Notes: a model not told the origin generated them from the letters alone. A DNA stretch of 64,000 nucleotides from a virus (IMGVR_UViG_3300028275_000007), one strand, 5' to 3'. Counted from the first letter of the stretch, positions 1 through 46,478 are shown. Numbers and translations: made by a program.

Positions 1-29
1 AATGTATCCGTAAAAAGGAAAGATTGAGG

Positions 30-58
30 TTGATTCTTCCAGAGCGTTCTGCTAATAT
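30..58 (+). promoter_or_regulatory. sigma70-type promoter
   Basis: TTGATT-N17-TAATAT upstream of CDS 112. Confidence 0.6.
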
Positions 59-111
59 TTAAGAACGCTGAAGAACAAGTAATCAGCTATATTAACTTAA
101 AAGGAAACAAA

Positions 112-384
112 ATGAAACGCATTTCTAAAGACACCAAGACTTTCAAGGTCTTCAACGCACTTTACAATGGTGCAAAACTTACCCAATCCGAAGCAACTAA
201 GCGTTTCGGCGTAGGTAACTTGGCTGCTGAAGCAAGCCGCATTCGTCAGCATGGTTACGCTGTTTATGCCAACACTCGTGTTGCTGGCAACGGTGTGACT
301 GTTACCGAATACGAGTTGGGCCAACCAAGCCGTGAGATCGTAGCACTTGGCTACAAAGCTCGCGCAATGGGTATCACTCTTTAA
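112..384 (+). CDS. winged-helix/HTH-like phage protein, probably highly expressed
   Basis: 90 aa ORF; AAGGA RBS; HTH-like segment LTQSEATKRFGVGNLAAEASRIR; biased codons (cgt, gct, ggt). Confidence 0.75.
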   Translation: MKRISKDTKTFKVFNALYNGAKLTQSEATKRFGVGNLAAEASRIRQHGYAVYANTRVAGNGVTVTEYELGQPSREIVALGYKARAMGITL

Positions 385-407
385 GAGTCGCTCCTAAAGT
401 AAACGAT

Positions 408-422
408 CCGATTCGCTCCCGG
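408..422 (+). repeat. 15-nt repeat CCGATTCGCTCCCGG, copy 1 (CCG/CGG stem, ATTCGCTCC loop) in a 3' UTR
   Basis: Exact match to 6555-6569. Confidence 0.9.
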
Positions 423-434
423 GGACTTTCTTTG

Positions 435-461
435 AGCCGCTACTACAGCGGCTTTTCTTTT
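435..461 (+). terminator. Rho-independent terminator
   Basis: AGCCGCT-actac-AGCGGCT followed by TTTCTTTT. Confidence 0.8.
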
Positions 462-468
462 GGCTGGA

Positions 469-499
469 TGTTGCAAAAATGCCACACCGGCCGGCACTC
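469..499 (+). repeat. bipartite element TGTTGC-N6-GCCACA-N4-CCGGCACTC
   Basis: Inverted counterpart at 3683-3713. Confidence 0.7.
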
Positions 500-509
500 T
501 CCAAACCGG

Positions 510-538
510 TTGACAACTTGGGCGATCAGCTATATAAT
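510..538 (+). promoter_or_regulatory. sigma70 early promoter
   Basis: TTGACA-N17-TATAAT. Confidence 0.9.
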
Positions 539-565
539 AGAGACAGTTAGACAACGGAGCGAAGA

Positions 566-1207
566 ATGCAATTCACAGCAGATCAAGTATGGGGCCTGGC
601 TGTTAGGGCTGATGTTCAAAATGGCGGCTACTGCAAAGAGCCAGTCTATGCTGCTACTGCCACCCACGGGATAGACTACAACACCGTGATCAAGCAACCA
701 AACAAGGTCTTGGTCAAGCAATGGCTCCGCGACAATGTGCAGCCTACAGCAGAAGAGATCGCTCAGGGACAGCAATATCGCGCACAGATCAACACCTTCA
801 CCATGAAGCTGCTGACTGGGAAGATCACAGACTTCGAGCAGACTGCTCTCAAGATTGCCCAAAAGGACGAGTTCACGGGCCGTGATATGTTGGACTTCGC
901 CATTGTCAGCTGCTTGCCCCAGTCAGCTCGCATGGAGCAATCCCGGACGGAGATGAAACGAGAACTGTTCCAAAGTGAGCAACTCCCGGGCGCTGTAGGG
1001 GATACTGTTGTGATCTCTCTGACTGTAATACGTTCGCGTTACAATCCTGAATACAACAAGTTCAAGATCTACGCCCGTGCAGGTGAGTCATTTGTGGACT
1101 TTTGGTTCTCACGTGCTGTAGAAGGTGAACTGCGGGTGAAGGCCAAGATCAAACAGCATCGTGGCGATAAAACAACAGCCCTAAATTATGTGAAAATCAT
1201 CAGTTGA
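566..1207 (+). CDS. hypothetical protein, possible C-terminal OB-fold
   Basis: 213 aa ORF with promoter and GGAGCGAA RBS; beta-rich C-terminus ending TALNYVKI. Confidence 0.75.
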   Translation: MQFTADQVWGLAVRADVQNGGYCKEPVYAATATHGIDYNTVIKQPNKVLVKQWLRDNVQPTAEEIAQGQQYRAQINTFTMKLLTGKITDFEQTALKIAQKDEFTGRDMLDFAIVSCLPQSARMEQSRTEMKRELFQSEQLPGAVGDTVVISLTVIRSRYNPEYNKFKIYARAGESFVDFWFSRAVEGELRVKAKIKQHRGDKTTALNYVKIIS

Positions 1208-1232
1208 CAGGTTGGGCACCTGGTGCTACAAT
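1204..1232 (+). promoter_or_regulatory. sigma70 early promoter
   Basis: TTGACA-N17-TACAAT. Confidence 0.85.
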
Positions 1233-1281
1233 AATGATACTGAGAGAGTAATTGTTTTAACTGTTTTTTAAGCGAGGTCTT

Positions 1282-2367
1282 ATGTCAAAGCAAGTAGATG
1301 TTTCCGTTCGCCAAGTTGGTCCTAAAAACGCCAAGAAGGCAATTCGTAAGGCGGTCAATGTTCGCCGTCCAGTGTTCCTGTGGGGTCCTCCAGGCATTGG
1401 TAAATCCGATCTCGTCAAGCAGATCGGTGAAGACGCAGGTCGTGAGGTCATCGACGTCCGCCTAGCACTTTGGGAGCCCACCGACATCAAGGGTATTCCT
1501 TATTACAATGCCGATCAAGGCAAAATGACTTGGGCTCCTCCTGCAGAACTGCCTGTGGACCCAGATAGCAAGGCAATCATCTTCTTGGATGAATTGAACT
1601 CTGCTCCTCCTGCTGTTCAGGCCGCGGCCTATCAGTTGATTCTGAACCGTCGTGTTGGTACCTACGAACTGCCTAAGGGTGTTGACGTAGTCGCCGCTGG
1701 TAACCGTGAAGGTGACCGTGGTGTTACCTACCGTATGCCTGCTCCGCTGGCTAACCGTTTCGTTCACTTGGAAATGAAAGTGGACTTTGATGACTGGCAA
1801 GACTGGGCTACCTTGAACAAGGTGCATCCAGATGTCGTAGGTTATGTAGGCTTTGCCAAGCAAGACCTGTATGACTTCGATCCTAAGAGCCCTAGCAAGT
1901 CATTTGCTACTCCTCGTTCTTGGATGTTCGTTTCTGACCTGCTCAGCGACGACGATGTTGACAACGAGACTTTGGCTACCCTGATTGCGGGTGCCGTTGG
2001 TGACGGTCTGAGCAATAAGTTTATGGCTCACCGTAAGATCGCAGGCAAACTGCCTAAGGCAGAAGACATTTTGGATGGCAAGGTCAAGGACCTGCAGATC
2101 AAAGAAGTGTCTGCGATGTATTCGTTGACTGTTTCACTCTGCTACGAGTTGAAAGACCGTGCTGAGAAGAAGGTCAAGGACTGGGACGGTATGGCAGATA
2201 ACTTCTTTGCCTATATGATGGCTAACTTCCCAACAGAGTTGGTTGTTATGGGTGCAAAGACTGCTCTTACTAACTACGACCTGCCCCTGGACGCTACTAA
2301 GATGAAGTCGTTCGACGAGTTCCACAAGCGTTTCGGCAAGTATGTTCTTTCAGCAATGGAGAATTAA
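1282..2367 (+). CDS. MoxR-family AAA+ ATPase
   Basis: Walker A GPPGIGKS, Walker B IIFLDE, AAGN sensor, PLANRF arginine finger; adjacent vWA gene. Confidence 0.9.
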   Translation: MSKQVDVSVRQVGPKNAKKAIRKAVNVRRPVFLWGPPGIGKSDLVKQIGEDAGREVIDVRLALWEPTDIKGIPYYNADQGKMTWAPPAELPVDPDSKAIIFLDELNSAPPAVQAAAYQLILNRRVGTYELPKGVDVVAAGNREGDRGVTYRMPAPLANRFVHLEMKVDFDDWQDWATLNKVHPDVVGYVGFAKQDLYDFDPKSPSKSFATPRSWMFVSDLLSDDDVDNETLATLIAGAVGDGLSNKFMAHRKIAGKLPKAEDILDGKVKDLQIKEVSAMYSLTVSLCYELKDRAEKKVKDWDGMADNFFAYMMANFPTELVVMGAKTALTNYDLPLDATKMKSFDEFHKRFGKYVLSAMEN

Positions 2368-2384
2368 GACCTCGCCCATTGCGG

Positions 2385-2415
2385 GGGTGTTGTAGAAATA
2401 CAACACCCTTTTTTT
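2385..2415 (+). terminator. Rho-independent terminator that also contains the palindrome TGTTGT-N6-ACAACA
   Basis: GGGTGTTGT-agaaat-ACAACACCC followed by T7. Confidence 0.8.
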
Positions 2416-2419
2416 ACGG

Positions 2420-2448
2420 TTGACGCATTGGATTTCCGGTGCTATAAT
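2420..2448 (+). promoter_or_regulatory. sigma70 early promoter
   Basis: TTGACG-N17-TATAAT. Confidence 0.85.
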
Positions 2449-2473
2449 ATATACATACTAAGGAGAGCGACTT

Positions 2474-3679
2474 ATGGATCCAATCGTTGAGAAACTAACT
2501 ACTGCACGAGTAGGCCTGCTTTTGAAAGCACCCTTCTTCGGCAATATGGCCACCCGTATGCGTTTGATGGACGCTTCAGACTGGTGCCCTACCGCGGCAA
2601 CTAACGGCCGTGACTTTATGTATAACAAGGACTTCATTAACAAACTGTCTGTTAAGAAGTTAGAGTTCCTGCTGGCACACGAGATCTGCCACTGCGTTTT
2701 TGATCACTTTGGTCGCGTAGGTTCACGTGATCGTATGCTGTCTAACATCGCACAGGACTATGCCGTAAACCAAATCCTTGTAGACGAACGCATCGGTGAG
2801 AAGATCACCGAGGTTAAGATCTGCTACGATCCCAAGTATCGTGGTATGGCTTGGGAAGAAATCTACGATCAATTGTATGAACAAGCAGAGAAGATCCCTA
2901 TGGATCAACTGCTGAAGCAATTGGGTGACCTTTTGGACGAGCACATTAAAGAAGAAGAAGGTGCTGGTAGCCCTGGCGACAAGACCAAAGACGGCAAAGA
3001 GAAGCCTACGCTCAGTAAGGAAGAAGCTGAGAAACTGCGTCAAGAGATCAAAGAGGCTATGATCCAAAGTGCCGCGGCCGCTGGTGCAGGTAAGACTCCT
3101 GCGGGCATTATGCGTATGATCAAGACTATGACTGAGCCTAAAATGGACTGGCGCCAATTGGTTCAGCAAGAGATCCAATCTATTGTGCGTAATGACTACT
3201 CATTCGCTCGCTACAATCGTAAGAGCCAACACTCAGGTGCGGTGCTTCCTGGTATGAAAGAAGCAACTACCATTGACGTGGCTATTGCAATCGATATGTC
3301 GGGTTCGATCGGTGAAGAGGATGCAACTGTATTCCTTTCTGAGATCAAAGGCATTATGGATCAATACGAGGACTTCAAGATCAACCTGTGGTGTTTTGAC
3401 ACAGAGATCTACAATCACCAAAGCATCAGCCACGACAACGCTGAAGACTTGGTTGAGTATGAACCTCAAGGTGGCGGTGGCACAGACTTCGATGTCAACT
3501 TTACCTTTATGGAAGAGAATGACATTCGCCCTAAGAAGTTCATTATGTTCACAGACGGCTATCCCTGCGGTAGTTGGGGTCCTGAGGACTACTGCGACAC
3601 AATCTTTATCGTTAAAGGTAACACATCTGCTCAAGCACCCTTTGGTCAGACTGTTATCTACGAAAAGGAAACGGGCTAA
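2474..3679 (+). CDS. DUF2201-type metallopeptidase plus vWA-domain protein (MoxR partner)
   Basis: HEICH (HExxH) motif; MIDAS DMSGS, GGGTDF, FTDG. Confidence 0.9.
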   Translation: MDPIVEKLTTARVGLLLKAPFFGNMATRMRLMDASDWCPTAATNGRDFMYNKDFINKLSVKKLEFLLAHEICHCVFDHFGRVGSRDRMLSNIAQDYAVNQILVDERIGEKITEVKICYDPKYRGMAWEEIYDQLYEQAEKIPMDQLLKQLGDLLDEHIKEEEGAGSPGDKTKDGKEKPTLSKEEAEKLRQEIKEAMIQSAAAAGAGKTPAGIMRMIKTMTEPKMDWRQLVQQEIQSIVRNDYSFARYNRKSQHSGAVLPGMKEATTIDVAIAIDMSGSIGEEDATVFLSEIKGIMDQYEDFKINLWCFDTEIYNHQSISHDNAEDLVEYEPQGGGGTDFDVNFTFMEENDIRPKKFIMFTDGYPCGSWGPEDYCDTIFIVKGNTSAQAPFGQTVIYEKETG

Positions 3680-3682
3680 CCG

Positions 3683-3713
3683 GAGTGCCGGGGGTTGTGG
3701 CTAAAAAGCCACA
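3683..3713 (-). repeat. bipartite element TGTGGC-N6-GCCACA-N4-CCGGCACTC (inverted copy)
   Basis: Reverse complement matches 469-499 in both arms and N4 spacing. Confidence 0.7.
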
Positions 3714-3759
3714 ACTTCCTAAGTGGCCCCGCTGCTACGTGTGTGCGTGAATCTAGGTC

Positions 3760-3788
3760 TTGACAGATAGGTAGATTGGTTGTATAAT
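3760..3788 (+). promoter_or_regulatory. sigma70 early promoter
   Basis: TTGACA-N17-TATAAT. Confidence 0.9.
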
Positions 3789-3820
3789 ATAGATATCGTA
3801 ACAAAGTAAGGAGTGATAAA

Positions 3821-3952
3821 ATGCTTAAATTCTTGTTAGGAGTATTTTTAACATTGGCTGTCCTGTACCCTGCTGTTACTAAGACCATCGTTGGTAATGC
3901 TGTTGATACCACCCACACGGTTGTAACTGGAGTTATGGAGAATGCTAAATGA
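3821..3952 (+). CDS. small membrane/secreted protein (43 aa, not in ORF track)
   Basis: AAGGAG RBS; MLKFLLGVFLTLAVLYPAV hydrophobic N-terminus. Confidence 0.7.
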   Translation: MLKFLLGVFLTLAVLYPAVTKTIVGNAVDTTHTVVTGVMENAK

Positions 3953-4125
3953 GTAAAGTCGCAGATCTTGCCTATGATATCGAGCAACTGTATATCGAAG
4001 GTCATTCGCCTAAGATGATTGCTCTCATGTTGGAGTGCCCCACAGAGATGGTCTATGATTGGATCGCCGGTAACGGGCTAACCACAGACGATTCCTACGA
4101 TCCGTTTGAGACTGTAAATTCGTGA
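3949..4125 (+). CDS. hypothetical protein (58 aa, HTH-like, not in ORF track)
   Basis: ATGA overlap with upstream gene; MSKVADLAYDIEQLYIEGHSPKMIALMLECPTEMVYDWI. Confidence 0.7.
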   Translation: MSKVADLAYDIEQLYIEGHSPKMIALMLECPTEMVYDWIAGNGLTTDDSYDPFETVNS

Positions 4126-4388
4126 GCAAATTAGAATACTACGCCCGCCCCCTTGTAGCCTTTGATCCAAGGAACAAGATGCACAGACGCTACTACAACC
4201 AATTCCTAGAGCATATGAGTTGGGGTCACTGTCCGGTTCGGTTCATCTGCCCGGAATCTAACGGTTCGGATTTGGTCAAAATGATCCAAACAGAGCTGCT
4301 CAAATACTATGTTGAGAAAGAGTTTAAGGTCAAGAAGAAACCCGCCAAACTCAAAGGTTATCCACATATCGCTAAAAAAACTGGTTGA
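4122..4388 (+). CDS. hypothetical protein
   Basis: 88 aa; GTGA overlap with upstream stop. Confidence 0.7.
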   Translation: MSKLEYYARPLVAFDPRNKMHRRYYNQFLEHMSWGHCPVRFICPESNGSDLVKMIQTELLKYYVEKEFKVKKKPAKLKGYPHIAKKTG

Positions 4389-4413
4389 CACTTTGGCTGA
4401 TCCTTGCTATAAT
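4385..4413 (+). promoter_or_regulatory. sigma70 early promoter
   Basis: TTGACA-N17-TATAAT. Confidence 0.9.
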
Positions 4414-4435
4414 TGACACATAGTTAGGAGAGCGA

Positions 4436-4576
4436 ATGGAATACACCGTGATTTACCCCAATGGCAACTCCCAGAAGTTCTACGTTCGGGCTGTAGCGGA
4501 AATGTACGCCACAATCAACGGCGGCCGTGTTGTAGGAAAACCTGAGTTGAAATTGGTTGACAAATTGGCTGCTTGA
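4436..4576 (+). CDS. hypothetical protein (46 aa, not in ORF track)
   Basis: Own promoter; AGGAGAGCGA RBS; MEYTVIYPNGNSQKFYV. Confidence 0.7.
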   Translation: MEYTVIYPNGNSQKFYVRAVAEMYATINGGRVVGKPELKLVDKLAA

Positions 4577-4585
4577 TCATACAAT
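4557..4585 (+). promoter_or_regulatory. sigma70 early promoter
   Basis: TTGACA-N17-TACAAT. Confidence 0.85.
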
Positions 4586-4608
4586 AGAACTATGATAAGG
4601 AGCGAACG

Positions 4609-4857
4609 ATGATAACAGAAAAACAGCGTGTTGTAAATGCCCTAAAGGGTTGGCAGTTCGTGCGTGGAACCCATGGTTGCTTGTATGATCGTGGATCCGC
4701 AGACTCCTACTACGGTAGGGCACGTGATCCTCACTACGGTGGAGTGGGAGGCGATTCCGGCGCCCGAGTCTCGGTCAACGACGAGGCTTCAGTGGCTGAA
4801 TACATGGCCGGCTACAACGACAACGAGCGTGATGGTAACAAGAAGGATTGGCGATGA
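4609..4857 (+). CDS. hypothetical phage protein
   Basis: 82 aa; promoter and GGAGCGAA RBS; YDRGSADSYYGR. Confidence 0.75.
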   Translation: MITEKQRVVNALKGWQFVRGTHGCLYDRGSADSYYGRARDPHYGGVGGDSGARVSVNDEASVAEYMAGYNDNERDGNKKDWR

Positions 4858-5051
4858 CCCCTACGGAATTTCAATACATTCAACGAGCCGTCAAGGCCTT
4901 GGAAACACCCATGAGCCTTCCAGAGAGGATTAAGGTGGAACGCACTATGGCCCAGATTCTGAGTCGCTCCGCTGACACTTTGGAACAGAATTTGGTTGAC
5001 AACATCGAAGATCGGTTGTATAATACTAATACTGAAACAGAAGGAGCGTGA
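4854..5051 (+). CDS. hypothetical protein
   Basis: ATGA overlap with the 4857 stop. Confidence 0.55.
   Translation: MTPTEFQYIQRAVKALETPMSLPERIKVERTMAQILSRSADTLEQNLVDNIEDRLYNTNTETEGA
4996..5024 (+). promoter_or_regulatory. sigma70 early promoter
   Basis: TTGACA-N17-TATAAT. Confidence 0.9.
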
Positions 5052-5052
5052 T

Positions 5053-5676
5053 ATGCCAAATTGGTGCAACAACACATTGACCCTTGAGCACGATGATCCA
5101 GCAATGATTACTCGTGCCAAAGAAGCACTGGATCGTGGAGAGTTCCTGCAGGAGTTCATTCCTGTGCCCAAAGAACTCACAGAAACCATGGCTGGTTCCT
5201 ACGGGGACGGAGACAAGCAGGCCGCATTGGAAGCACAGATGAAGTCCAATGTTGAAAAGTTTGGCTACAGCAACTGGTATGACTACTGCGTCGGCGAGTG
5301 GGGAACCAAATGGGATGTAGGTGGCGATGGACAGACTGATATTCACCCTGATGGTAAGACGCTGTTCACTACCTTTGATTCAGCATGGTCTCCACCCGTG
5401 AATGCTTATCAGAAGTTAGAGCAACTAGGCTTCCGAGTTTCTGCACAGTTCTATGAATCAGGTATGGCTTTTGCTGGTGTATATGAGGACGGCAACTGCG
5501 AGGACTTTAGCCTCGAAGGCATGACTGCTGATGAGATCGAACGGGATTACCCAGAACTAGACGAAGCGTTCTGCATCGCTGAGGCTATCCGTGAGTTCCA
5601 GGAAGAGGAAGAAGAAGAACTCACAGAGTGGATCAAAGATGGTGTTGACAAGAACCTGGAGTTGAAGTCTCTATGA
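5053..5676 (+). CDS. DUF1281/YubB-like ferredoxin-fold protein
   Basis: MPNWCNN start after AAGGAGCG; WYDYCVGEWGTKWD and FDSAWSPP motifs; start moved from 4996 because the promoter lies there. Confidence 0.75.
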   Translation: MPNWCNNTLTLEHDDPAMITRAKEALDRGEFLQEFIPVPKELTETMAGSYGDGDKQAALEAQMKSNVEKFGYSNWYDYCVGEWGTKWDVGGDGQTDIHPDGKTLFTTFDSAWSPPVNAYQKLEQLGFRVSAQFYESGMAFAGVYEDGNCEDFSLEGMTADEIERDYPELDEAFCIAEAIREFQEEEEEELTEWIKDGVDKNLELKSL

Positions 5677-5987
5677 CAATGACTGTGGTCAAAATGGACC
5701 GACGCTATGACGGGCACGATCGCTTCAGTCATAGAGTCGAGTTCACAGGCTATCAGCCACATGGCCAGAAGCAGACTCGAATTGCACAATGGGTTCGAGC
5801 TCGCAACTGGCTGTGGCAACAGTTTGGTCCTTCAGGAGAATTGTTCTGCGCCCGGCCCACTTACTTCGATGGACATCAGCCGGTTTGGGCCTGGGATGCA
5901 GAGAAATCATCGCTGTATCTGAGCAAGGAAGCCTACACGATGTTTATGTTACGCAAGGAATTTTGGGAAAATGTCGAGAACCTTTAA
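5673..5987 (+). CDS. hypothetical protein
   Basis: 104 aa; ATGA overlap. Confidence 0.7.
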   Translation: MTMTVVKMDRRYDGHDRFSHRVEFTGYQPHGQKQTRIAQWVRARNWLWQQFGPSGELFCARPTYFDGHQPVWAWDAEKSSLYLSKEAYTMFMLRKEFWENVENL

Positions 5988-6177
5988 CTATCGATTAGAA
6001 GTCATCTGTGGAGGTTCAGGCACAGCGGACGAGGTCCGGGTCGAGGAAATGCTCGATTTGGCCTTTCAGGATCTGGTCTATGACGACGAGTTTATCGCCG
6101 CCCTAGACGAGAAAGAGTCTGTGACCATTCGAGTGTCTAAATTGGACAACCGAATGGTTGACAGAAGTGGCACTTGA
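5971..6177 (+). CDS. hypothetical acidic protein
   Basis: 68 aa; GGGA upstream. Confidence 0.6.
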   Translation: MSRTFNYRLEVICGGSGTADEVRVEEMLDLAFQDLVYDDEFIAALDEKESVTIRVSKLDNRMVDRSGT

Positions 6178-6186
6178 TGCTACATT
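6158..6186 (+). promoter_or_regulatory. sigma70 early promoter
   Basis: TTGACA-N17-TACATT. Confidence 0.8.
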
Positions 6187-6240
6187 TATAACATACCAAA
6201 AAGGTATATTTTTTAACACACACAGAAAGAGGTAATTTAA

Positions 6241-6552
6241 ATGGCTACAGATAAGAAGTTTGCGGTTGCTGGTGTTTCCACTCAAGCAGGTAAGACCAAG
6301 GTTCGTTTCGCTAATGACGTGATGCGCATCAAGATCCTTGCCAAGAATGGTCACACTGACATCAACCTCGTGGATCTTCCACGTGAAATGACCAAGGCTG
6401 AGATTGGTGCCTATATGGTCGAAACTGGCTTTGGCAAGGGCAATGCTGCTGTAGAAGCTGCTGTTGCTTACATTGTCAAGAAGAACCCTTTGGCCACAGC
6501 TGCCAAGGTAAGTAAGACTACTGTCGCGAAGACAGAAGCTATCGCCGAATAA
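6241..6552 (+). CDS. basic Ala/Lys-rich phage protein, possible nucleic-acid binder
   Basis: 103 aa; GAGGT RBS; strong codon bias; K/A/T-rich tail. Confidence 0.8.
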   Translation: MATDKKFAVAGVSTQAGKTKVRFANDVMRIKILAKNGHTDINLVDLPREMTKAEIGAYMVETGFGKGNAAVEAAVAYIVKKNPLATAAKVSKTTVAKTEAIAE

Positions 6553-6554
6553 AC

Positions 6555-6569
6555 CCGATTCGCTCCCGG
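6555..6569 (+). repeat. 15-nt repeat CCGATTCGCTCCCGG, copy 2, in a 3' UTR
   Basis: Exact match to 408-422; 2 nt after the stop; CCGAT...ATCGG extended stem. Confidence 0.9.
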
Positions 6570-6585
6570 TATCGGCGGTCTTAAC

Positions 6586-6620
6586 ACCCTACTGTATACA
6601 CGTACAGTAGGGTTTTTTTT
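6586..6620 (+). terminator. Rho-independent terminator
   Basis: ACCCTACTGTA-tacacg-TACAGTAGGGT followed by T run. Confidence 0.9.
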
Positions 6621-6622
6621 GG

Positions 6623-6651
6623 TTGACAACTGGCGTTTTTGAATATATAAT
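6623..6651 (+). promoter_or_regulatory. sigma70 early promoter
   Basis: TTGACA-N17-TATAAT. Confidence 0.9.
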
Positions 6652-6670
6652 TAAACAATAGGAGAGCGCG

Positions 6671-7063
6671 ATGGAACTTATTGATTGGATCACACTAGCT
6701 ATATTCTTTGCCCTGGGTTGGTTCCTAGGTAACAGGGCTGCGACCCGCATTCATCTCACTGCTTTCTCCATGATCCTCAAGGAGTTGGGCGTGAAGAATC
6801 AGGATTTGATTCGTGTGGCTCGTGCCAATGGCCTCACTATCCCTGAACCTGAGCATGATGAACCTGAGTTAGATCACATCGAAATCAAGGTGGAAAAGCA
6901 CGGTGAAATGCTCTATGCTTTCCGCAAGGACAACGATCGGTTCCTAGGCCAAGGCACTTCACGTGAAGAACTCATCAATCGTATGGCTGAGTCACTGCGC
7001 AATGTTCGCTGTACCGTAGTGGAAGGCAATGAGTATATGATCAAGGATAGCCCTACAAGCTAA
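6671..7063 (+). CDS. hypothetical protein with N-terminal transmembrane segment
   Basis: 130 aa; WITLAIFFALGWFLG; GGAGAGCG RBS. Confidence 0.75.
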   Translation: MELIDWITLAIFFALGWFLGNRAATRIHLTAFSMILKELGVKNQDLIRVARANGLTIPEPEHDEPELDHIEIKVEKHGEMLYAFRKDNDRFLGQGTSREELINRMAESLRNVRCTVVEGNEYMIKDSPTS

Positions 7064-7081
7064 AGGGTTATTACAAATTGG

Positions 7082-7110
7082 TTGACAGATTGGCTGTTTG
7101 GGCATACAAT
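7082..7110 (+). promoter_or_regulatory. sigma70 early promoter
   Basis: TTGACA-N17-TACAAT. Confidence 0.85.
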
Positions 7111-7135
7111 ATACACATACTAACAAGGAGCGAAG

Positions 7136-7318
7136 ATGTTAACAAACAAGCAAAACCAGCAACTGCTCAGGGCTGTGGAACTACTGCAGGAAGCAGACGC
7201 ATTGGTACAGTCAGCAATGGGCGCCAGCGACGAATGCTACTACATCCACACACAAATTGAAAACTCAGCGGATGACGTGCTGGACTTTATACAAGAGAAC
7301 ACTGAAGAGGCAGCGTAA
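7136..7318 (+). CDS. hypothetical helical protein
   Basis: 60 aa; AAGGAGCGAA RBS. Confidence 0.75.
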   Translation: MLTNKQNQQLLRAVELLQEADALVQSAMGASDECYYIHTQIENSADDVLDFIQENTEEAA

Positions 7319-7629
7319 TGGAAGCCCTACAGGAAACCACTGGGGGGCAGTTTCCTGCCCACACTTACCTACTCGATGGCACAACGCTGGTTGCCTATAT
7401 CAAGCAAGGGGAAACTACGCCATTCTATTTCAAGTCAGGAATCAAAGGCTTCGACAAGCGAGGCCGGAAGTTCCAAACCGTAACACCAAACCCATTCAAA
7501 GTAAAGGCATCAAATGACACACGCACAGTCCAAGGCTCAAACGGCAAAACTTACACAGTCAACGACGCAGAGAAAACCTGTACCTGTCCAGGATTTACAT
7601 TTAGAGGTGCCTGCAAACACCTGGGCTAA
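7318..7629 (+). CDS. SWIM zinc-finger protein
   Basis: YTV...CTCPGF....ACKH. Confidence 0.8.
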   Translation: MEALQETTGGQFPAHTYLLDGTTLVAYIKQGETTPFYFKSGIKGFDKRGRKFQTVTPNPFKVKASNDTRTVQGSNGKTYTVNDAEKTCTCPGFTFRGACKHLG

Positions 7630-7634
7630 TATGG

Positions 7635-7663
7635 TTGACAGATTGGTAAAAGGCTGTTAAAAT
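7635..7663 (+). promoter_or_regulatory. sigma70 promoter, probably leaderless transcript
   Basis: TTGACA-N17-TAAAAT-N6-ATG. Confidence 0.8.
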
Positions 7664-7669
7664 ACACAT

Positions 7670-7894
7670 ATGATAAACAACTTACTCCAATGGTCCGGTA
7701 CTGCATTCCTCTTAGGAATGTATGTGGTTATGAACTTCTTCCACACTCTGCATCCTCTGCAGATCGTCTTGGGACTCTGCGGTGGCCTGTGCTATTTTGC
7801 TTGGAGCTACCGTGTGGCAAATAAGCCACAGATGATCGTTAACCTAGCGGGCATATCCGTATGCGCCGCAGGGTTATTCCACTATTTTGGTTGA
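7670..7894 (+). CDS. small multi-pass membrane protein
   Basis: 74 aa; three hydrophobic segments. Confidence 0.7.
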   Translation: MINNLLQWSGTAFLLGMYVVMNFFHTLHPLQIVLGLCGGLCYFAWSYRVANKPQMIVNLAGISVCAAGLFHYFG

Positions 7895-7919
7895 CAGTTT
7901 GGGCTAAAGATCCTATACT
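7891..7919 (+). promoter_or_regulatory. sigma70 early promoter
   Basis: TTGACA-N17-TATACT. Confidence 0.85.
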
Positions 7920-7946
7920 ATAAACACTGAAACAAAGGAGCGAACA

Positions 7947-8060
7947 ATGATCAAACTCATCGGATGGATTGCAGTTACCTGGGCTCTGTTCCACTTTGGC
8001 ATTGCTCAGGCCATCTTAATCACGGCCGCTGCTGCGGGAACCATAGTCTTCGGAGGTTGA
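7947..8060 (+). CDS. small hydrophobic protein (37 aa, not in ORF track)
   Basis: AAGGAGCGAA RBS; MIKLIGWIAVTWALFHFGIAQAILITAAAAGTIVFGG. Confidence 0.65.
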   Translation: MIKLIGWIAVTWALFHFGIAQAILITAAAAGTIVFGG

Positions 8061-8061
8061 T

Positions 8062-8322
8062 GTGTCAGGTTGGGTAGTCTACGATCAGCGTTCGGGTCAT
8101 ATGCAGAAGTATTACAAGCTGGCTGCAACTGCGAAAAGGATCGTCACACAGCACAACACAGAACGCGAGTATGATTGGGGCGATGGCTCAGGCAGCTACA
8201 CCTATCGTCCTCAGAGTCTTTGGGCCTGCTGCTCCTATGCAGACTACGAAGGGATTCTAATGGGTCTGCGTGGGGAAGCGTTTAAGATGTGGCAGTTTGT
8301 GCGCAATAACCCTAGAGGTTGA
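8062..8322 (+). CDS. hypothetical protein
   Basis: GGAGG RBS with GTG start. Confidence 0.65.
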   Translation: MSGWVVYDQRSGHMQKYYKLAATAKRIVTQHNTEREYDWGDGSGSYTYRPQSLWACCSYADYEGILMGLRGEAFKMWQFVRNNPRG

Positions 8323-8338
8323 CAGGTCTTCCAAAAGA
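8309..8338 (+). repeat. 30-bp direct repeat, copy 1 (promoter-containing)
   Basis: ACCCTAGAGGTTGACAGGTCTTCCAAAAGA identical to 8556-8585. Confidence 0.95.
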
Positions 8339-8347
8339 CAGTATAAT
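8319..8347 (+). promoter_or_regulatory. sigma70 early promoter
   Basis: TTGACA-N17-TATAAT. Confidence 0.9.
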
Positions 8348-8379
8348 TGACACATACACAAACAAACAAGGAGCGAAAG

Positions 8380-8553
8380 ATGATCAATCAAGACCTTAGA
8401 GTAATCGCAGGAATCCAAGAACGCCTGGGCCAACTGCCCGTGCTGGAAACCCTGATCTATATCGAAAACAACACTGGCGAGTTCACTATCGCTGAACTGC
8501 GTAGTTTCTACAACGTGATGTCACAATTCCGTGCGCTGTTTGCTGCCGCCTAA
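8380..8553 (+). CDS. hypothetical protein (57 aa)
   Basis: ATG 8380 after AAGGAGCGAA; the track start at 8347 lies in the -10 box. Confidence 0.7.
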   Translation: MINQDLRVIAGIQERLGQLPVLETLIYIENNTGEFTIAELRSFYNVMSQFRALFAAA

Positions 8554-8555
8554 AG

Positions 8556-8585
8556 ACCCTAGAGGTTGACAGGTCTTCCAAAAGA
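8556..8585 (+). repeat. 30-bp direct repeat, copy 2
   Basis: Identical to 8309-8338. Confidence 0.95.
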
Positions 8586-8594
8586 TCGTATAAT
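8566..8594 (+). promoter_or_regulatory. sigma70 early promoter
   Basis: TTGACA-N17-TATAAT. Confidence 0.9.
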
Positions 8595-8623
8595 ACACGC
8601 ATATTAACAAATAGGGAGCGCAA

Positions 8624-8860
8624 ATGAAACACAACGAAGTTCAACTCTACAAGAACATCGGCTCTATCCAGGCAGTCGAGGGTGACGAAGGCCGCTACTA
8701 CTTCTACCGTCACTTTGCCACAGGTAACACCTGCGATGAAGACACCATCAAAGGCGCCAAAGAGATGTTGGATTGGGAAGAAAAGAACTATCAAGAAGTA
8801 CAGGCCGCGATCCGTGTGCTTCAGGGCCGTGGCTATCGTGTGTTCAAAGAAGTGGCCTAA
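8624..8860 (+). CDS. hypothetical protein
   Basis: 78 aa; GGGAGCG RBS. Confidence 0.75.
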   Translation: MKHNEVQLYKNIGSIQAVEGDEGRYYFYRHFATGNTCDEDTIKGAKEMLDWEEKNYQEVQAAIRVLQGRGYRVFKEVA

Positions 8861-8865
8861 ATTGG

Positions 8866-8894
8866 TTGACAAACGGCCAGTTCGATCGTATAAT
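8866..8894 (+). promoter_or_regulatory. sigma70 early promoter
   Basis: TTGACA-N17-TATAAT. Confidence 0.9.
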
Positions 8895-8926
8895 ATACAC
8901 ATACACTAAACAACTAGGAGCTGAAA

Positions 8927-9109
8927 ATGGTTACAGAAGGTCAGGGAATGTTTGTCGTCATAGTAGGACTTGTGATCACTATGTTGGGCACAGGTGGTGT
9001 AGAGAATAGCATCACCAACACAGAGCTGCTACAGGCCCTAGCTGTTGCAGTAACTGGACTAGGTGCAATGTATGCAGGTACACTTATGATCCAGAGGGCT
9101 CAGCAATGA
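8927..9109 (+). CDS. small two-TM membrane protein
   Basis: 60 aa; AGGAGCTGAA RBS; two hydrophobic helices. Confidence 0.7.
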   Translation: MVTEGQGMFVVIVGLVITMLGTGGVENSITNTELLQALAVAVTGLGAMYAGTLMIQRAQQ

Positions 9110-9333
9110 CTATAGAACTACACGGACTTAATCGTCAACAACATCAGATCGCAGACATGATCTGGAGCTGTGAATCGCAAGCAGATGTTGAGCGGCTTAT
9201 ACGGAACCTGCCCCCCGCATATCAAAAGGATGCTGTAGTCATACACGATCTAATGATCGCTGCTGTGATGGATCAACATATGGAGATCACTGAAGATGTT
9301 CGTGCGCTTATTCGTAGCCTTAGCTCTAGCTAA
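9106..9333 (+). CDS. hypothetical protein
   Basis: 75 aa; ATGA overlap. Confidence 0.7.
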   Translation: MTIELHGLNRQQHQIADMIWSCESQADVERLIRNLPPAYQKDAVVIHDLMIAAVMDQHMEITEDVRALIRSLSSS

Positions 9334-9496
9334 TCTAGCTGCCTGTACAGCCTACGATCGTAGAGACGCAGCTTGGTCACGGCCCTATCATCAGAAGTTT
9401 GATCAGATTCCCAATCAACCTGGCGAGGCTCTTCGACGCTGTGGAGGTCAGGTTAGACCTGAACTGAGGACACCGGAGATGACCGACCGGTGCTGA
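9296..9496 (+). CDS. putative small lipoprotein
   Basis: Hydrophobic N-terminus with LAAC lipobox; two further Cys. Confidence 0.55.
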   Translation: MFVRLFVALALANLAACTAYDRRDAAWSRPYHQKFDQIPNQPGEALRRCGGQVRPELRTPEMTDRC

Positions 9497-9658
9497 GGTG
9501 GTGGGGGGTGGCCGGTATAGTGTGTATACTATAGTAGTAGTTTTACTAGCGGTATGGGGTCTAAAATCACCACCCTGAAATGAAAAGTACTCCACCCAAA
9601 TTTTTTGCGCGGCCAAATTTTTGACCTCTAAAACCCTTTTCTTAGTATATACTAGTCT

Positions 9659-10159
9659 ATGCTTTATACACCCAAATATCAACAGATGCTGGTTCAAGAA
9701 CATCTGCGCAGACCCTGGGGCGATGTTGGTCATCGTTACTCTGAACATATCTTAGAGCTTTATCATCAATACTCCTGTGCGCACATCTTGGACTACGGCT
9801 GTGGACAAGCTCTGCTCAGTAAAAAAATCGGCGATCTAGTCCCTGTGGATAACTATGATCCCGGAATCCCAGCTTATTCTACTCTGCCACAACCTAGAGA
9901 TCTCGTAGTCTGCGTAGATGTCTTAGAGCACATAGAACCTCAGTGTATTCACTCAGTCTTGGCACATCTACAGTCTTTGACTCTAAAAGTAGCCTATGTT
10001 AACATATCGTCAGTGCCTGCACGTAGTTCATTCCCTAACGGACAAAATCTTCATCTTATACAAGAACCCCTAGAATGGTGGCTAAGTCAGCTTAGTCAGT
10101 ACTTTACTCTTGGCTCTGTTACTAACAATCTAGTTATATGCCACAGTACGCACTCCTAA
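9659..10159 (+). CDS. class I SAM-dependent methyltransferase
   Basis: ILDYGCGQA motif I; DLVVCVDVLEHIEP. Confidence 0.8.
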   Translation: MLYTPKYQQMLVQEHLRRPWGDVGHRYSEHILELYHQYSCAHILDYGCGQALLSKKIGDLVPVDNYDPGIPAYSTLPQPRDLVVCVDVLEHIEPQCIHSVLAHLQSLTLKVAYVNISSVPARSSFPNGQNLHLIQEPLEWWLSQLSQYFTLGSVTNNLVICHSTHS

Positions 10160-10527: not shown

Positions 10528-10589
10528 ACGACGCAAACTGCCCTTGGGATCTCACATAGATATAAGGGTTTGATGTAAATACTAGTGTA

Positions 10590-10853
10590 ATGCTACTTGT
10601 GTACCTAGAGCCATTTCGCCAGTCGCAGATTACCTTACTTAATTCTTGGCGCGACTCAGTACACTATTGGCCTCGTAGTTATGCTCACACTGATGCCTAT
10701 AACTCTGCTATTCCCACAGACTACTGGCTGCTTTTTGGAGTGCCAAAATTGGCCACACAATGGCTTCTACAGTATCCTGAACACTCGCGTATAATGCGCA
10801 CTCTGTTCGAAGACTTTGATCAAGATTTACTGACTAAATTCTCTTGTAGATAG
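10590..10853 (+). CDS. hypothetical protein
   Basis: 87 aa; TAAATA at 10576-10581. Confidence 0.55.
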   Translation: MLLVYLEPFRQSQITLLNSWRDSVHYWPRSYAHTDAYNSAIPTDYWLLFGVPKLATQWLLQYPEHSRIMRTLFEDFDQDLLTKFSCR

Positions 10854-36988: not shown

Positions 36989-38064
36989 TATACGCTCTCC
37001 GTTTCAGGTTCGACATTAGTAGTTATCTCAGAAACGGAATTTTCACCATGTTTTGAAATGTCAGACATAATAGCATCTAAGCCACCATTTTCATTTCTTT
37101 CCCAGGCTTTGCGGAACTGTTTGATGATTTCACCATCTTTAGTTGTGTAAACAAGACTGTTACCTTCTTTCTTTAGAAGACCTTTTTCTTCTGCCAGATC
37201 TACCAGTCCACTATATGGATTCATACCTGTTTCATAAGGAATCTTCACTTGTACACTTTCAAATGGTTTAGCATAACGAGTTTTCATAATCTTACAAGCG
37301 GCACGAATACCCTTAACTTCTGAAATCTTGTTACCATCTTCATCTTCTTTTAACTTTAACTTACGCATAGCAACTACAATAGAGCTAGCGTAGATAAAGC
37401 CCTGACCACCTGAAATCTTGTCATCTGGATCAAACATATCTTGTGAAGCGTATGTGTGATTAGTTGCAACCAGGCCAATGTTAAGTGATCCAAACATATT
37501 AACACAGTTACGAACAAGTGCTGTCAATGCCTTAGGCTTACGACCCATATCGCCTTTCAAATCACCTGCTTCAAACTGATTAACATCTGTTGGAGTAAGC
37601 AACATACCTAAAGAGTCAAGGATAAACAATACTTTAGGACGAGTATCCTCTGGCATTGTTTTATATTCAGCAACAAATTCTGTAATGGTCTTTGCTACAT
37701 CATCGATCATTGCCATATTAAGTTTTAGCAACTTATCTTCTGAAGTATCGACGCCTAATGCCTTGAGCCAATCTTCGTCAAGAGCATTTTCTGTATCGAT
37801 CAAGATAGGATAAATTCCCTGTGCCTGTGCTGCCTTGATAAGGTTACCGGAACAGATATATGATTTACCTGCACCTGATTCACCGGCAAATACAGTCACT
37901 TTTCCCAACGGAACCCCTTTATGGAAATCGCCGCTGATCAAATAGTTTAAGGCAAAATTGCCTGTGCTGACCCAATCAGTAGGGTCGTTAAAGCCAATAC
38001 TAAGACCGTCAATAGACTTAGTAATTGACTTTCTAAATTTAGAAATATCAAATGCTTTTGCCAT
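36988..38064 (-). CDS. uvsX: UvsX RecA-like recombinase
   Basis: FAGESGAGKS; DTENAL; ILDSLG; NHTY; SGGQG. Confidence 0.92.
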   Translation of the reverse strand: MAKAFDISKFRKSITKSIDGLSIGFNDPTDWVSTGNFALNYLISGDFHKGVPLGKVTVFAGESGAGKSYICSGNLIKAAQAQGIYPILIDTENALDEDWLKALGVDTSEDKLLKLNMAMIDDVAKTITEFVAEYKTMPEDTRPKVLFILDSLGMLLTPTDVNQFEAGDLKGDMGRKPKALTALVRNCVNMFGSLNIGLVATNHTYASQDMFDPDDKISGGQGFIYASSIVVAMRKLKLKEDEDGNKISEVKGIRAACKIMKTRYAKPFESVQVKIPYETGMNPYSGLVDLAEEKGLLKKEGNSLVYTTKDGEIIKQFRKAWERNENGGLDAIMSDISKHGENSVSEITTNVEPETESV

Positions 38065-45831: not shown

Positions 45832-46478
45832 TATTTCGCTCCTTTAGCTTCTTCTAATCTACGCAGTAATTCTGCTCTAATAGAAGCACGTAATTCTTCG
45901 CCTTCCATGGCCATTGGATTGTCGCCTTGACGATAGCTGTGTTTAACCATTTGTTTAGGTTTGTTTAAATCATTACCGTCCGGAATAGCTGCGCTAACAT
46001 CTTTAACTTCTGGCTCAGAACCTGGAACTGAATTTCCAAATGCTTCGTCTTCTTTATCTTCTTCGCCTTTTTCTTCAGGACCTTCTTCGCCGCCTACTTT
46101 TTCATCGTTGTCAGCATCCATATCAGGAAGCATTTTCAATGGGCCTTTGTCTAGATCGCCTAGACCGCCTAGCTTAGGCATACCGCCTTCTGGCTTGTCC
46201 ATTGGTTCAATTTCAATGTGTGGCATACCGCCCATTGGAGCAGCAGGCTTATCCATACCTGGGTTAACTGCCTTGATTAAAGATAATAGTTCTTCAATAT
46301 TATCTAAACCTTGTGCATTTAAGTTAACGCTCATACTTGGAGGAGGAGCATCTGGTTTACCCATATTGCCCATTGGGCTAGGAGGCATTTCTCCACACTC
46401 GTCTGTTACAACTGGAGCTGCCTCAACTGCTGGTTGATCAAGCTCTCTCATTCTTGCCATTAAATCATTAAAATTCAT
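45831..46478 (-). CDS. acidic Pro/Met-rich late protein, possible internal head protein
   Basis: GGGAG RBS; low complexity. Confidence 0.7.
   Translation of the reverse strand: MNFNDLMARMRELDQPAVEAAPVVTDECGEMPPSPMGNMGKPDAPPPSMSVNLNAQGLDNIEELLSLIKAVNPGMDKPAAPMGGMPHIEIEPMDKPEGGMPKLGGLGDLDKGPLKMLPDMDADNDEKVGGEEGPEEKGEEDKEDEAFGNSVPGSEPEVKDVSAAIPDGNDLNKPKQMVKHSYRQGDNPMAMEGEELRASIRAELLRRLEEAKGAK

Follow-up and report, generated by a model that had tools for sequence, protein, structure and literature searches.

Conserved GGAGCG extension of early ribosome-binding sites in an uncultured river jumbo phage and its complement in the hairpin loops of two 3' untranslated regions

The stretch of DNA analysed here, referred to as the window, is 64,000 nucleotides (nt) long and comes from the minus strand of the 110,417-bp IMG/VR virus contig IMGVR_UViG_3300028275_000007, which belongs to an uncultured river jumbo phage and has a CheckV completeness of 31%. 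We describe a short sequence tag, GGAGCG or a close variant of this, which is found at the ribosome-binding sites of early genes, and two hairpins located in the 3' untranslated regions (3'UTRs) of two other early genes which display the complement of the tag in their loops. The tag is found in one early cluster, which covers window positions 1 to approximately 9500 and continues beyond the start of the window for about 4.8 kb (locus L089). The cluster contains 22 near-perfect sigma70 promoters (GGTTGACA, 17 nt, TAyAAT) spread over about 14 kb of the plus strand, and behind each of these come a short A/C-rich leader and a small gene. Fifteen of these promoters (GGTTGACA-N17-TAyAAT) form an array within the window (510–8894, plus strand) made up of units that resemble the PeSL units of T4-like phages, and a further seven are found upstream in L089. 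The cluster has a G+C content of 46–49% (window 1–9500) compared to 33–42% across the rest of the contig, and the window therefore shows a sharp composition break inside a single phage genome (1–9500 versus 10000–64000). A megablast search of the early region against GenBank phages found no match, and we used a relative from the same clade, G001 (353,123 bp, 98% complete), as a near-complete genome for comparison.

All eleven tagged starts listed in the original prediction, which had been made from the sequence of the window, were recovered on the plus strand, five as exact copies of GGAGCGAA and the others as variants. The exact copies lie at 556–563 (ATG at 566 of a 213-amino-acid gene, promoter at 510), 4599–4606 (ATG 4609, promoter 4557), 7127–7134 (ATG 7136, promoter 7082), 7937–7944 (ATG 7947, promoter 7891) and 8370–8377 (ATG 8380, promoter 8319). 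The variants are GGAGAGCGAC at 2462–2471 (ATG 2474 of a DUF2201 metallopeptidase/VWA gene, promoter 2420), GGAGAGCGA at 4427–4435 (ATG 4436, promoter 4385), GGAGCGT at 5043–5049 (ATG 5053, with the promoter at 4996 located within the preceding open reading frame), GGAGAGCGC at 6661–6669 (ATG 6671, promoter 6623), and GGGAGCGC at 8614–8621 (ATG 8624, promoter 8566), plus the near-variant GGAGCTGAA at 8917–8925 which keeps GGAGC but lacks GCG (ATG 8927, promoter 8866). Each site stands 5–8 nt before an ATG that opens an open reading frame and behind a consensus TTGACA-N17-TAyAAT promoter, as had been predicted.

The set of tagged starts is larger than the minimum of eleven first proposed, as GGAG(AG)CG, in the form of GGAGCG or GGAGAGCG, is found 5–8 nt before the ATG in 16 of the 22 promoter-proximal early starts of the whole contig, with L089 adding six tagged starts upstream of the window. 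Three other promoter-proximal early starts read GGAGCA, GGAGCT or GGAGTG, and the tag is found in none of the 11 internal cistrons of the cluster. When only starts with a GGAG core were compared, the tag was present on 16/19 early promoter-proximal starts and on 2/25 starts elsewhere (Fisher p = 2.9e-7), and its predicted absence from late and replication starts holds both on the contig and in G001. The two tagged starts outside the cluster (45835–45842 and about 36993–37000, minus strand) lie within upstream coding sequence and have no promoters, and were set aside as chance occurrences. In the window there are nine copies of GGAGCGAA where 1.02 are expected, a number not reached in any of 100 shuffles, and two of these are reverse-strand copies within the 3'UTR hairpins. 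The bare pentamer GAGCG is not enriched (46 copies versus 55.7 expected), which indicates that the signal is positional and resides in the position and the 8-mer only.

The distance from the tag to the ATG is held at 5–8 nt while that from the –10 box to the ATG varies between 19 and 34 nt, and we therefore assign the tag to the translation start rather than to the promoter. A canonical Shine-Dalgarno core of the GGAG type is located 5–8 nt before the start codon in every tagged start, within the 4–10 nt expected of such a site. The leaders had been described as unstructured and A/C-rich; they are A/C-rich, but the tag is predicted to be no more often unpaired (mean probability 0.49) than the other parts of the leader, and a lack of structure is therefore not a distinguishing feature. 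With the usual 16S tail, the C and G which follow GGAG would be mismatches, though the usual tail may not be that of the host. The suggestion that GCG does not extend pairing with the anti-Shine-Dalgarno sequence is qualified in the same manner, as it rests on a CCUCC core which is reported to be conserved in other bacteria (PMC10783764) and which may not be that of the host. Elsewhere in this phage, genes that do not belong to the cluster have ordinary GGAGA, GGAGG and GGAGT sites, so a peculiarity of the host anti-Shine-Dalgarno sequence is unlikely to explain a cluster-specific tag and was rejected as its cause.

Further analysis of related loci indicates that the tag is conserved within a clade of these phages. 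A relative of the MoxR-like ATPase encoded in the cluster is found in more than 596 IMG/VR contigs; 61 loci in which the ATPase is 81–94% identical share both the promoter array and the tag, while loci at about 72% identity are from A+T-rich T4-like phages which have neither (a search for intermediate lineages using the ATPase of L065 as query recovered the same two clades). The genome and 80 related loci together provided a set of 664 distinct promoter-to-start units, and 387 of these units have GGAG located 4–12 nt before the ATG. In these, GGAG is followed by C in 79% (1.07 bits) and then by G in 84% (1.16 bits), compared to 0.1–0.7 bits at the other leader positions, and most of the remaining units have the GGAGAGCG form which retains GAGCG, as had been noted for variants in the window. 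The conservation of these two bases far above that of the drifting leader indicates that both are under selection of their own and have not merely been inherited with the cassette. In G001 the tag is found at 11 of the 26 consensus promoters of a cluster at 310–330 kb and at 0/53 consensus promoters elsewhere, and hence marks one cluster rather than every sigma70-driven gene. The tag, GGAGC(G)(AA), is a cis mark that labels first cistrons within a single early cluster at their ribosome sites; insofar as the original prediction called it a regulon tag, this is supported at the level of sequence by a position locked to the start codon, by restriction to one early cluster, and by conservation above that of the leader in about 60 relatives.

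The complement of the tag is found behind two early genes on the plus strand which have untagged ribosome sites themselves. Gene A (112–384, ribosome site AAAGGAAAC) encodes a 90-amino-acid winged helix-turn-helix protein (PF14090) and is followed in its 3'UTR by hairpin 1, CCG-AUUCGCUCC-CGG (408–422), and then by an intrinsic terminator at 434–454. Gene B (6241–6552, ribosome site AAGAGGU) encodes a 103-amino-acid protein without a family and is followed by hairpin 2, an identical 15-mer (6555–6569), and an intrinsic terminator at 6586–6613. The 9-nt loop AUUCGCUCC is the exact complement of GGAGCGAAU, and the 15-mer CCGATTCGCTCCCGG is present twice in the window where 0.01 copies are expected, both times flanked by a stop codon on one side and a strong intrinsic terminator on the other; the early region of the window has just one further terminator of this strength. 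A second, unstructured copy of the complement, GUCGCUCC, lies directly behind the stop codon of gene A (387–394, plus strand), and similar additional copies are also found in L009, L020 and L064.

The 15-mer is invariant in 37 distinct gene A 3'UTRs and in 12 of 14 gene B 3'UTRs in which the flanks differ widely, and some relatives have two hairpins behind gene A and none behind gene B. In the consensus fold the CCG/CGG stem closes the 9-nt loop AUUCGCUCC and is nested in a covarying outer stem, in which pairs have been changed on both sides in 9–15 sequences per pair for gene A and in 1–3 for gene B, and in L052 the inner stem has changed from CCG/CGG to UCG/CGA. The outer stem of hairpin 2 extends into the last codons of gene B, and the predicted unpaired probability of the loop is 0.95 for the hairpin of gene A and 0.50 for that of gene B. 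The sole loop variant in the clade is a change of the last C to U (L011, L012, L014 and L015) which would still pair with GGAGCGAA by means of a G.U pair and is a better fit to GGAGAGCGAA. Neither element is covered by Rfam, as a search of window positions 1–10000 with the covariance models gave no relevant match at E values of up to 1.

The region is also present in six river metatranscriptome runs in the form of contigs, and contigs from four runs were aligned with it. We note that single contigs end at 422 (run X21) and at 3743 (run X22), where they continue into Illumina adapter letters. The 15-mer of hairpin 1 also finishes at position 422, but with one contig each these stops are no more than a faint indication of RNA ends. 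Contig-depth bins were highest over genes A and B, but this depth is not suited to ranking, and we draw no conclusion from it or from the contig stops.

Tag and loop are contiguously complementary over 8–9 nt for the GGAGCGAA sites and over 7 nt for the GGAGAGCG sites, and thus over the at least 7 nt we required of a riboregulator, and 81% of the 21 leaders of this phage contain a perfect 7-mer complement of its gene A 3'UTR. The predicted duplexes between the 15-mer and tagged leaders range from about –11 to –18 kcal/mol, compared to a mean of –6.4 kcal/mol for 90 other gene starts and –3.1 and –4.6 kcal/mol for the starts of genes A and B, respectively. For the tagged leaders the predicted duplex is also stronger with the 15-mer than with the standard 16S tail (which may not be that of the host).

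More distant homologs of gene A were collected by an exhaustive profile search and their contigs retrieved in order to compare leaders and 3'UTRs in other lineages. In L149 (49% identity) three hairpins lie behind the homolog, and their loops contain CCGCUCC, AAUUCGCUCC and AUUCGCUCC; in L156 (48% identity; a homolog with no close relative in IMG/VR) there are five. The promoter-proximal ribosome sites of L156 are mostly aCUGGAGa, a form found in 6 of its 22 leaders, while the other lineages together have it in 17/768 (p = 1.7e-5). One L156 loop, GCUCCAGU, contains the complement (CUCCAGU) of these ACUGGAG leaders, so that the two sides show a matched switch. Homologs without such loops (L151, L153 and L155) come with no tag. 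In a large sister clade the homolog is followed by a single-stranded (C/U)GCUCC and then by a hairpin with the loop GGUAGUGU, and the leaders read ACACUA-A-GGAGCA; the two halves complement the 3'UTR elements in the order that antiparallel pairing requires, and CACUA is found in 37% of leaders in lineages with UAGUG loops compared to 10% in those without (p = 0.0006). When each lineage's own 3'UTR and leaders were compared with cross-lineage pairs, own pairs shared more perfect complementary 6-mers (p = 0.00015) and 7-mers (p = 0.013). As far as sequence goes, a common core of GGAGC with GCUCC is firm across the clades, but the evidence that tag and loop have changed together in the distant lineages appears mixed. 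It should also be noted that a second loop word, GUAGUG(U/A), is conserved and recurs in hairpins behind gene A homologs (L156 5193–5450 in three copies, L155 6400–6430, and L160–L217), and that early leaders of these phages often contain the complementary CACUAC or ACACUA.

The reading of these observations that we favour, with slightly more confidence than doubt, is that an anti-Shine-Dalgarno RNA carried in a 3'UTR pairs with the tagged early leaders. From the tag, its position, cluster restriction and conservation, and from the complementarity, the hairpin and its covarying stems, we infer that the two RNAs meet, that the effect is repression, and that it is timed as follows. Tagged early mRNAs would be translated at first, while the mRNAs of genes A and B, or processed terminator-proximal fragments of these, accumulate. 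The AUUCGCUCC loop would then pair over 7–9 nt with the tagged Shine-Dalgarno region and outcompete the 16S tail, which would form 4–5 base pairs there. 30S binding on the first cistron would be blocked, translation of the cistrons coupled to it would be lost as a consequence, and the tagged mRNA would probably be exposed to decay. As the hairpin RNA builds up, the synthesis of tagged early proteins would be damped or shut off, and genes A and B, the internal cistrons and the genes outside the cluster would not be direct targets. The A/C-rich leaders with their AACAA repeats could provide landing sites for a chaperone, by analogy with enterobacterial Hfq targets. Pairing may instead have a protective or activating role. 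The original prediction that the tag is read by 3'UTR seed RNAs is thus supported to the extent that the exact 8–9-nt complement of the tag forms an invariant loop with covarying stems in two early 3'UTRs, while on cross-lineage covariation the support is mixed.

A number of observations weigh against this pairing. Six of the 22 promoter-proximal early starts are untagged, and the three-pair stem that closes the 9-nt loop would have to open for the loop to pair over its full length. The hairpin genes also share the promoter class of their putative targets, and any delay would therefore have to come from accumulation or stability. Most sister lineages combine GGAGCA sites with a CGCUCC element, leaving an A.C mismatch at the tag-defining base, and the association between UGCUCC and GGAGCA is not significant. 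The comparison of own and cross-lineage pairs was not significant for 8-mers (p = 0.14) or for duplex energy over whole 3'UTRs (p = 0.19), though the latter was probably swamped by the G+C-rich terminators, and all of the cross-lineage tests ignore shared ancestry.

The alternative which survives best, and which we consider unlikely, has no trans-acting reader. The tag would then be the ribosome-site end of a PeSL-type cassette of promoter, leader and Shine-Dalgarno sequence, kept alike by descent, by recombination between cassettes and by selection for a moderate AGGAG site without extended 16S pairing, and the 3'UTR complement would have another role or be a by-product. PeSLs are composite units described as recombination substrates in the variable early regions of T4-like phages, where repeated units of stem-loop, sigma70 promoter, Shine-Dalgarno sequence and start codon promote shuffling (PMC2839356, PMC4122927). 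The architecture seen here fits this description, with repeated near-consensus sigma70 promoters, Shine-Dalgarno sequences and start codons, and with signs of unit duplication, as the neighbouring units with promoters at 8319 and 8566 are headed by an identical stretch of about 30 nt (ACCCTAGAGGTTGACAGGTCTTCCAAAAGA; window 8296–8325 and 8543–8572) which is a sign of recent duplication or of recombination between cassettes. The restriction of the tag to promoter-proximal cistrons is also as expected of a cassette, as is the finding that sister lineages differ at base 6 (A) without a matching change in the element, which counts against pairing at the same time. However, the units have not been homogenised, and the C and G after GGAG are kept at 79% and 84% while promoter spacers and leaders differ in both length and sequence. 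Avoidance of longer 16S pairing would permit A, C or U, as is seen elsewhere in the phage, and a cassette does not explain why only AGGAGCG stays fixed, the presence of an invariant, structured and exact 8–9-nt complement in two 3'UTRs, or the matched switch in L156. As for the upstream stem-loop of a PeSL, strong terminator hairpins were seen ahead of the promoters at 510, 2420 and 6623 alone (the other units were not surveyed systematically), and neither a specific site extension nor a complementary 3'UTR loop is reported in PMC2839356 and PMC4122927.

A protein reader is less likely again. In this case a phage or host endoribonuclease cutting in or beside GGAG, in the manner of RegB, or a translational repressor of the RegA type would recognise the tag, and the hairpins would be unrelated or act as decoys. 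There is precedent for both in T4, where RegB together with S1 inactivates early mRNAs by cutting GGAG in ribosome sites selected by their 3' context, and RegA represses many early mRNAs at the start region through A+U-rich operators which overlap the AUG (PMC3014915), and approximately half of the early-cluster proteins here have no known family. The early ribosome sites do contain intergenic GGAG, but a strong RegB site, GG*AGRAYARAA, is A-rich on its 3' side and has a purine after GGAG where 79% of the 387 units have a C, and the tag is G+C-rich and lies upstream of the AUG, unlike a RegA operator. Pfam searches for RegB (PF10715) and RegA (PF01818) found no match in the contig or in G001, although a very distant RegB analogue is possible, and if the reader were a protein there would be no reason to expect a complementary loop to be conserved. 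The suggestion that the tag is read by a phage RNase or repressor thus finds no support in either a RegB or RegA homolog or in the sequence of the motif (PMC3014915). The likely outcome under the RNA reading resembles that of RegB and RegA, namely a selective inactivation of early mRNAs at their ribosome sites in which the sequence 3' of GGAG is decisive, but with no such gene found here, a C in place of the purine and an RNA as the proposed reader.

Finally, it is very improbable that GGAGCGAA or the 15-bp CCGGGAGCGAATCGG is a DNA-level site bound in either orientation by a DNA-binding protein such as the winged-helix product of gene A, for although the same 14–15-bp element is found in both orientations, gene A is always linked to it, and two G001 leaders outside the cluster read CCGGGAGCGAA(T/C)CG before the ATG, the element is not a dyad, its distance varies from the promoter but not from the ATG, sense copies are strictly sorted to positions 5–8 nt before start codons and antisense copies to 3'UTRs before terminators, and the antisense copies are flanked by sequences in which covariation follows RNA stems. 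We note that the two G001 leaders (L233 280–2026 and 9533–9840) belong to divergent genes and that TATAACCGGGAGCGAA(T/C)CG-ATG is the full 14-nt complement of the hairpin. One of them heads a pair of CsgF-like and CsgG-like (curli secretion) genes with SH3 domains, and both could fold into a mirror hairpin and kiss the 3'UTR loop.

Pairing between the 3'UTR loops and the tagged leaders would have parallels in several known systems. Enterobacterial small RNAs (sRNAs) derived from 3'UTRs carry their seed upstream of the intrinsic terminator of the mRNA itself and are Hfq-dependent. The hairpins described here resemble these in having the putative seed before an intrinsic terminator and candidate target leaders rich in A-R-N repeats (AACAA and ACAAACAA), a likeness which is apparent from sequence alone. 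In Staphylococcus aureus, the sRNAs RsaA–K and RNAIII have C-rich (UCCC) loops in which an anti-Shine-Dalgarno motif pairs with ribosome sites (PMC2790875), and the UCCCCUG motif of icaR is an anti-Shine-Dalgarno element located within a 3'UTR (PMC3868564). As in these RNAs, a pyrimidine-rich anti-Shine-Dalgarno motif is predicted to be displayed unpaired and would block initiation on its targets. The phage differs in being a lytic jumbo phage with a motif that matches the CGAA extension shared by about 16 early genes and, unlike that of icaR, the element, located in the 3'UTRs of two genes that are not themselves tagged, would act in trans and not on the mRNA that carries it. The c4 antisense RNA of P1 and P7 also has loops which pair around the ribosome site of a phage mRNA and block its translation (PMC12197685). 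The likeness here lies in the complementarity of phage-encoded RNA loops to phage ribosome-site regions; c4 acts on one operon, icd–ant, in temperate-phage immunity, while here a whole early cluster is tagged and the putative regulator forms part of 3'UTRs.

RNAs which cover ribosome sites by base pairing have been described before, as have PeSL cassettes. What would be new is a shared site extension which tags the whole early cluster of a lytic jumbo phage, together with loops, conserved over a very large uncultured clade, which match this extension and are located in the 3'UTRs of a further two early genes. If pairing is real, it would represent a regulon-wide post-transcriptional switch made purely in RNA within a lytic phage, with about 16 early genes tagged, and a way for a phage without RegB and RegA to end the early phase. 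It would also add a phage example to the anti-Shine-Dalgarno regulators carried in 3'UTRs and provide a simple and portable pair of tag and reader for the control of translation. If it is not real, there is still a sharp and conserved ribosome-site extension in PeSL-like cassettes in need of another explanation.

A wider reading, which we offer more tentatively and with somewhat more doubt than confidence, is that an RNA-only early shut-off takes the place of RegB and RegA across a large freshwater clade of jumbo T4-like phages. In this, one to five loops would evolve together with the leader 'barcodes' (GGAGCGAA, ACUGGAG and ACACUA) as multi-hairpin 3'UTR riboregulators attached to the conserved winged-helix gene, and the barcodes would span the entire early cluster.

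Several other features of the region are of interest. The MoxR-like AAA ATPase gene (PF07728) adjoins the DUF2201 metallopeptidase/VWA gene (window 1282–3679) and the pair is kept in more than 596 viral contigs, with the start of the ATPase gene untagged and that of the DUF2201 gene always in the GGAGAGCG form. At 7635–7672 just 6 nt (ACACAT) separate a TTGACA-N17-TAAAAT promoter from the ATG of a gene encoding a 74-amino-acid hydrophobic protein (7670–7894), which makes this a candidate for a leaderless or near-leaderless early mRNA without a ribosome site. Another repeated upstream word of the GTATATACTA / TGTATACTATAG type is found at window 9515–9545, 9640–9660 and 10570–10590 and in L089 (–5215 to –5195). 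This word is located at the borders of the early cluster, ahead of genes that lack a sigma70 consensus promoter, and may represent a second class of promoter, and a copy at –5187 stands before a GGAGCGAT site. Finally, several early promoters have a G+C-rich hairpin within the 17-nt spacer between the –35 and –10 boxes, such as CAGGGCC-TAC-GGGCCCTG, with examples found in L089 (at about –2077 to –2045 relative to the window) and in L057 (6185–6560).

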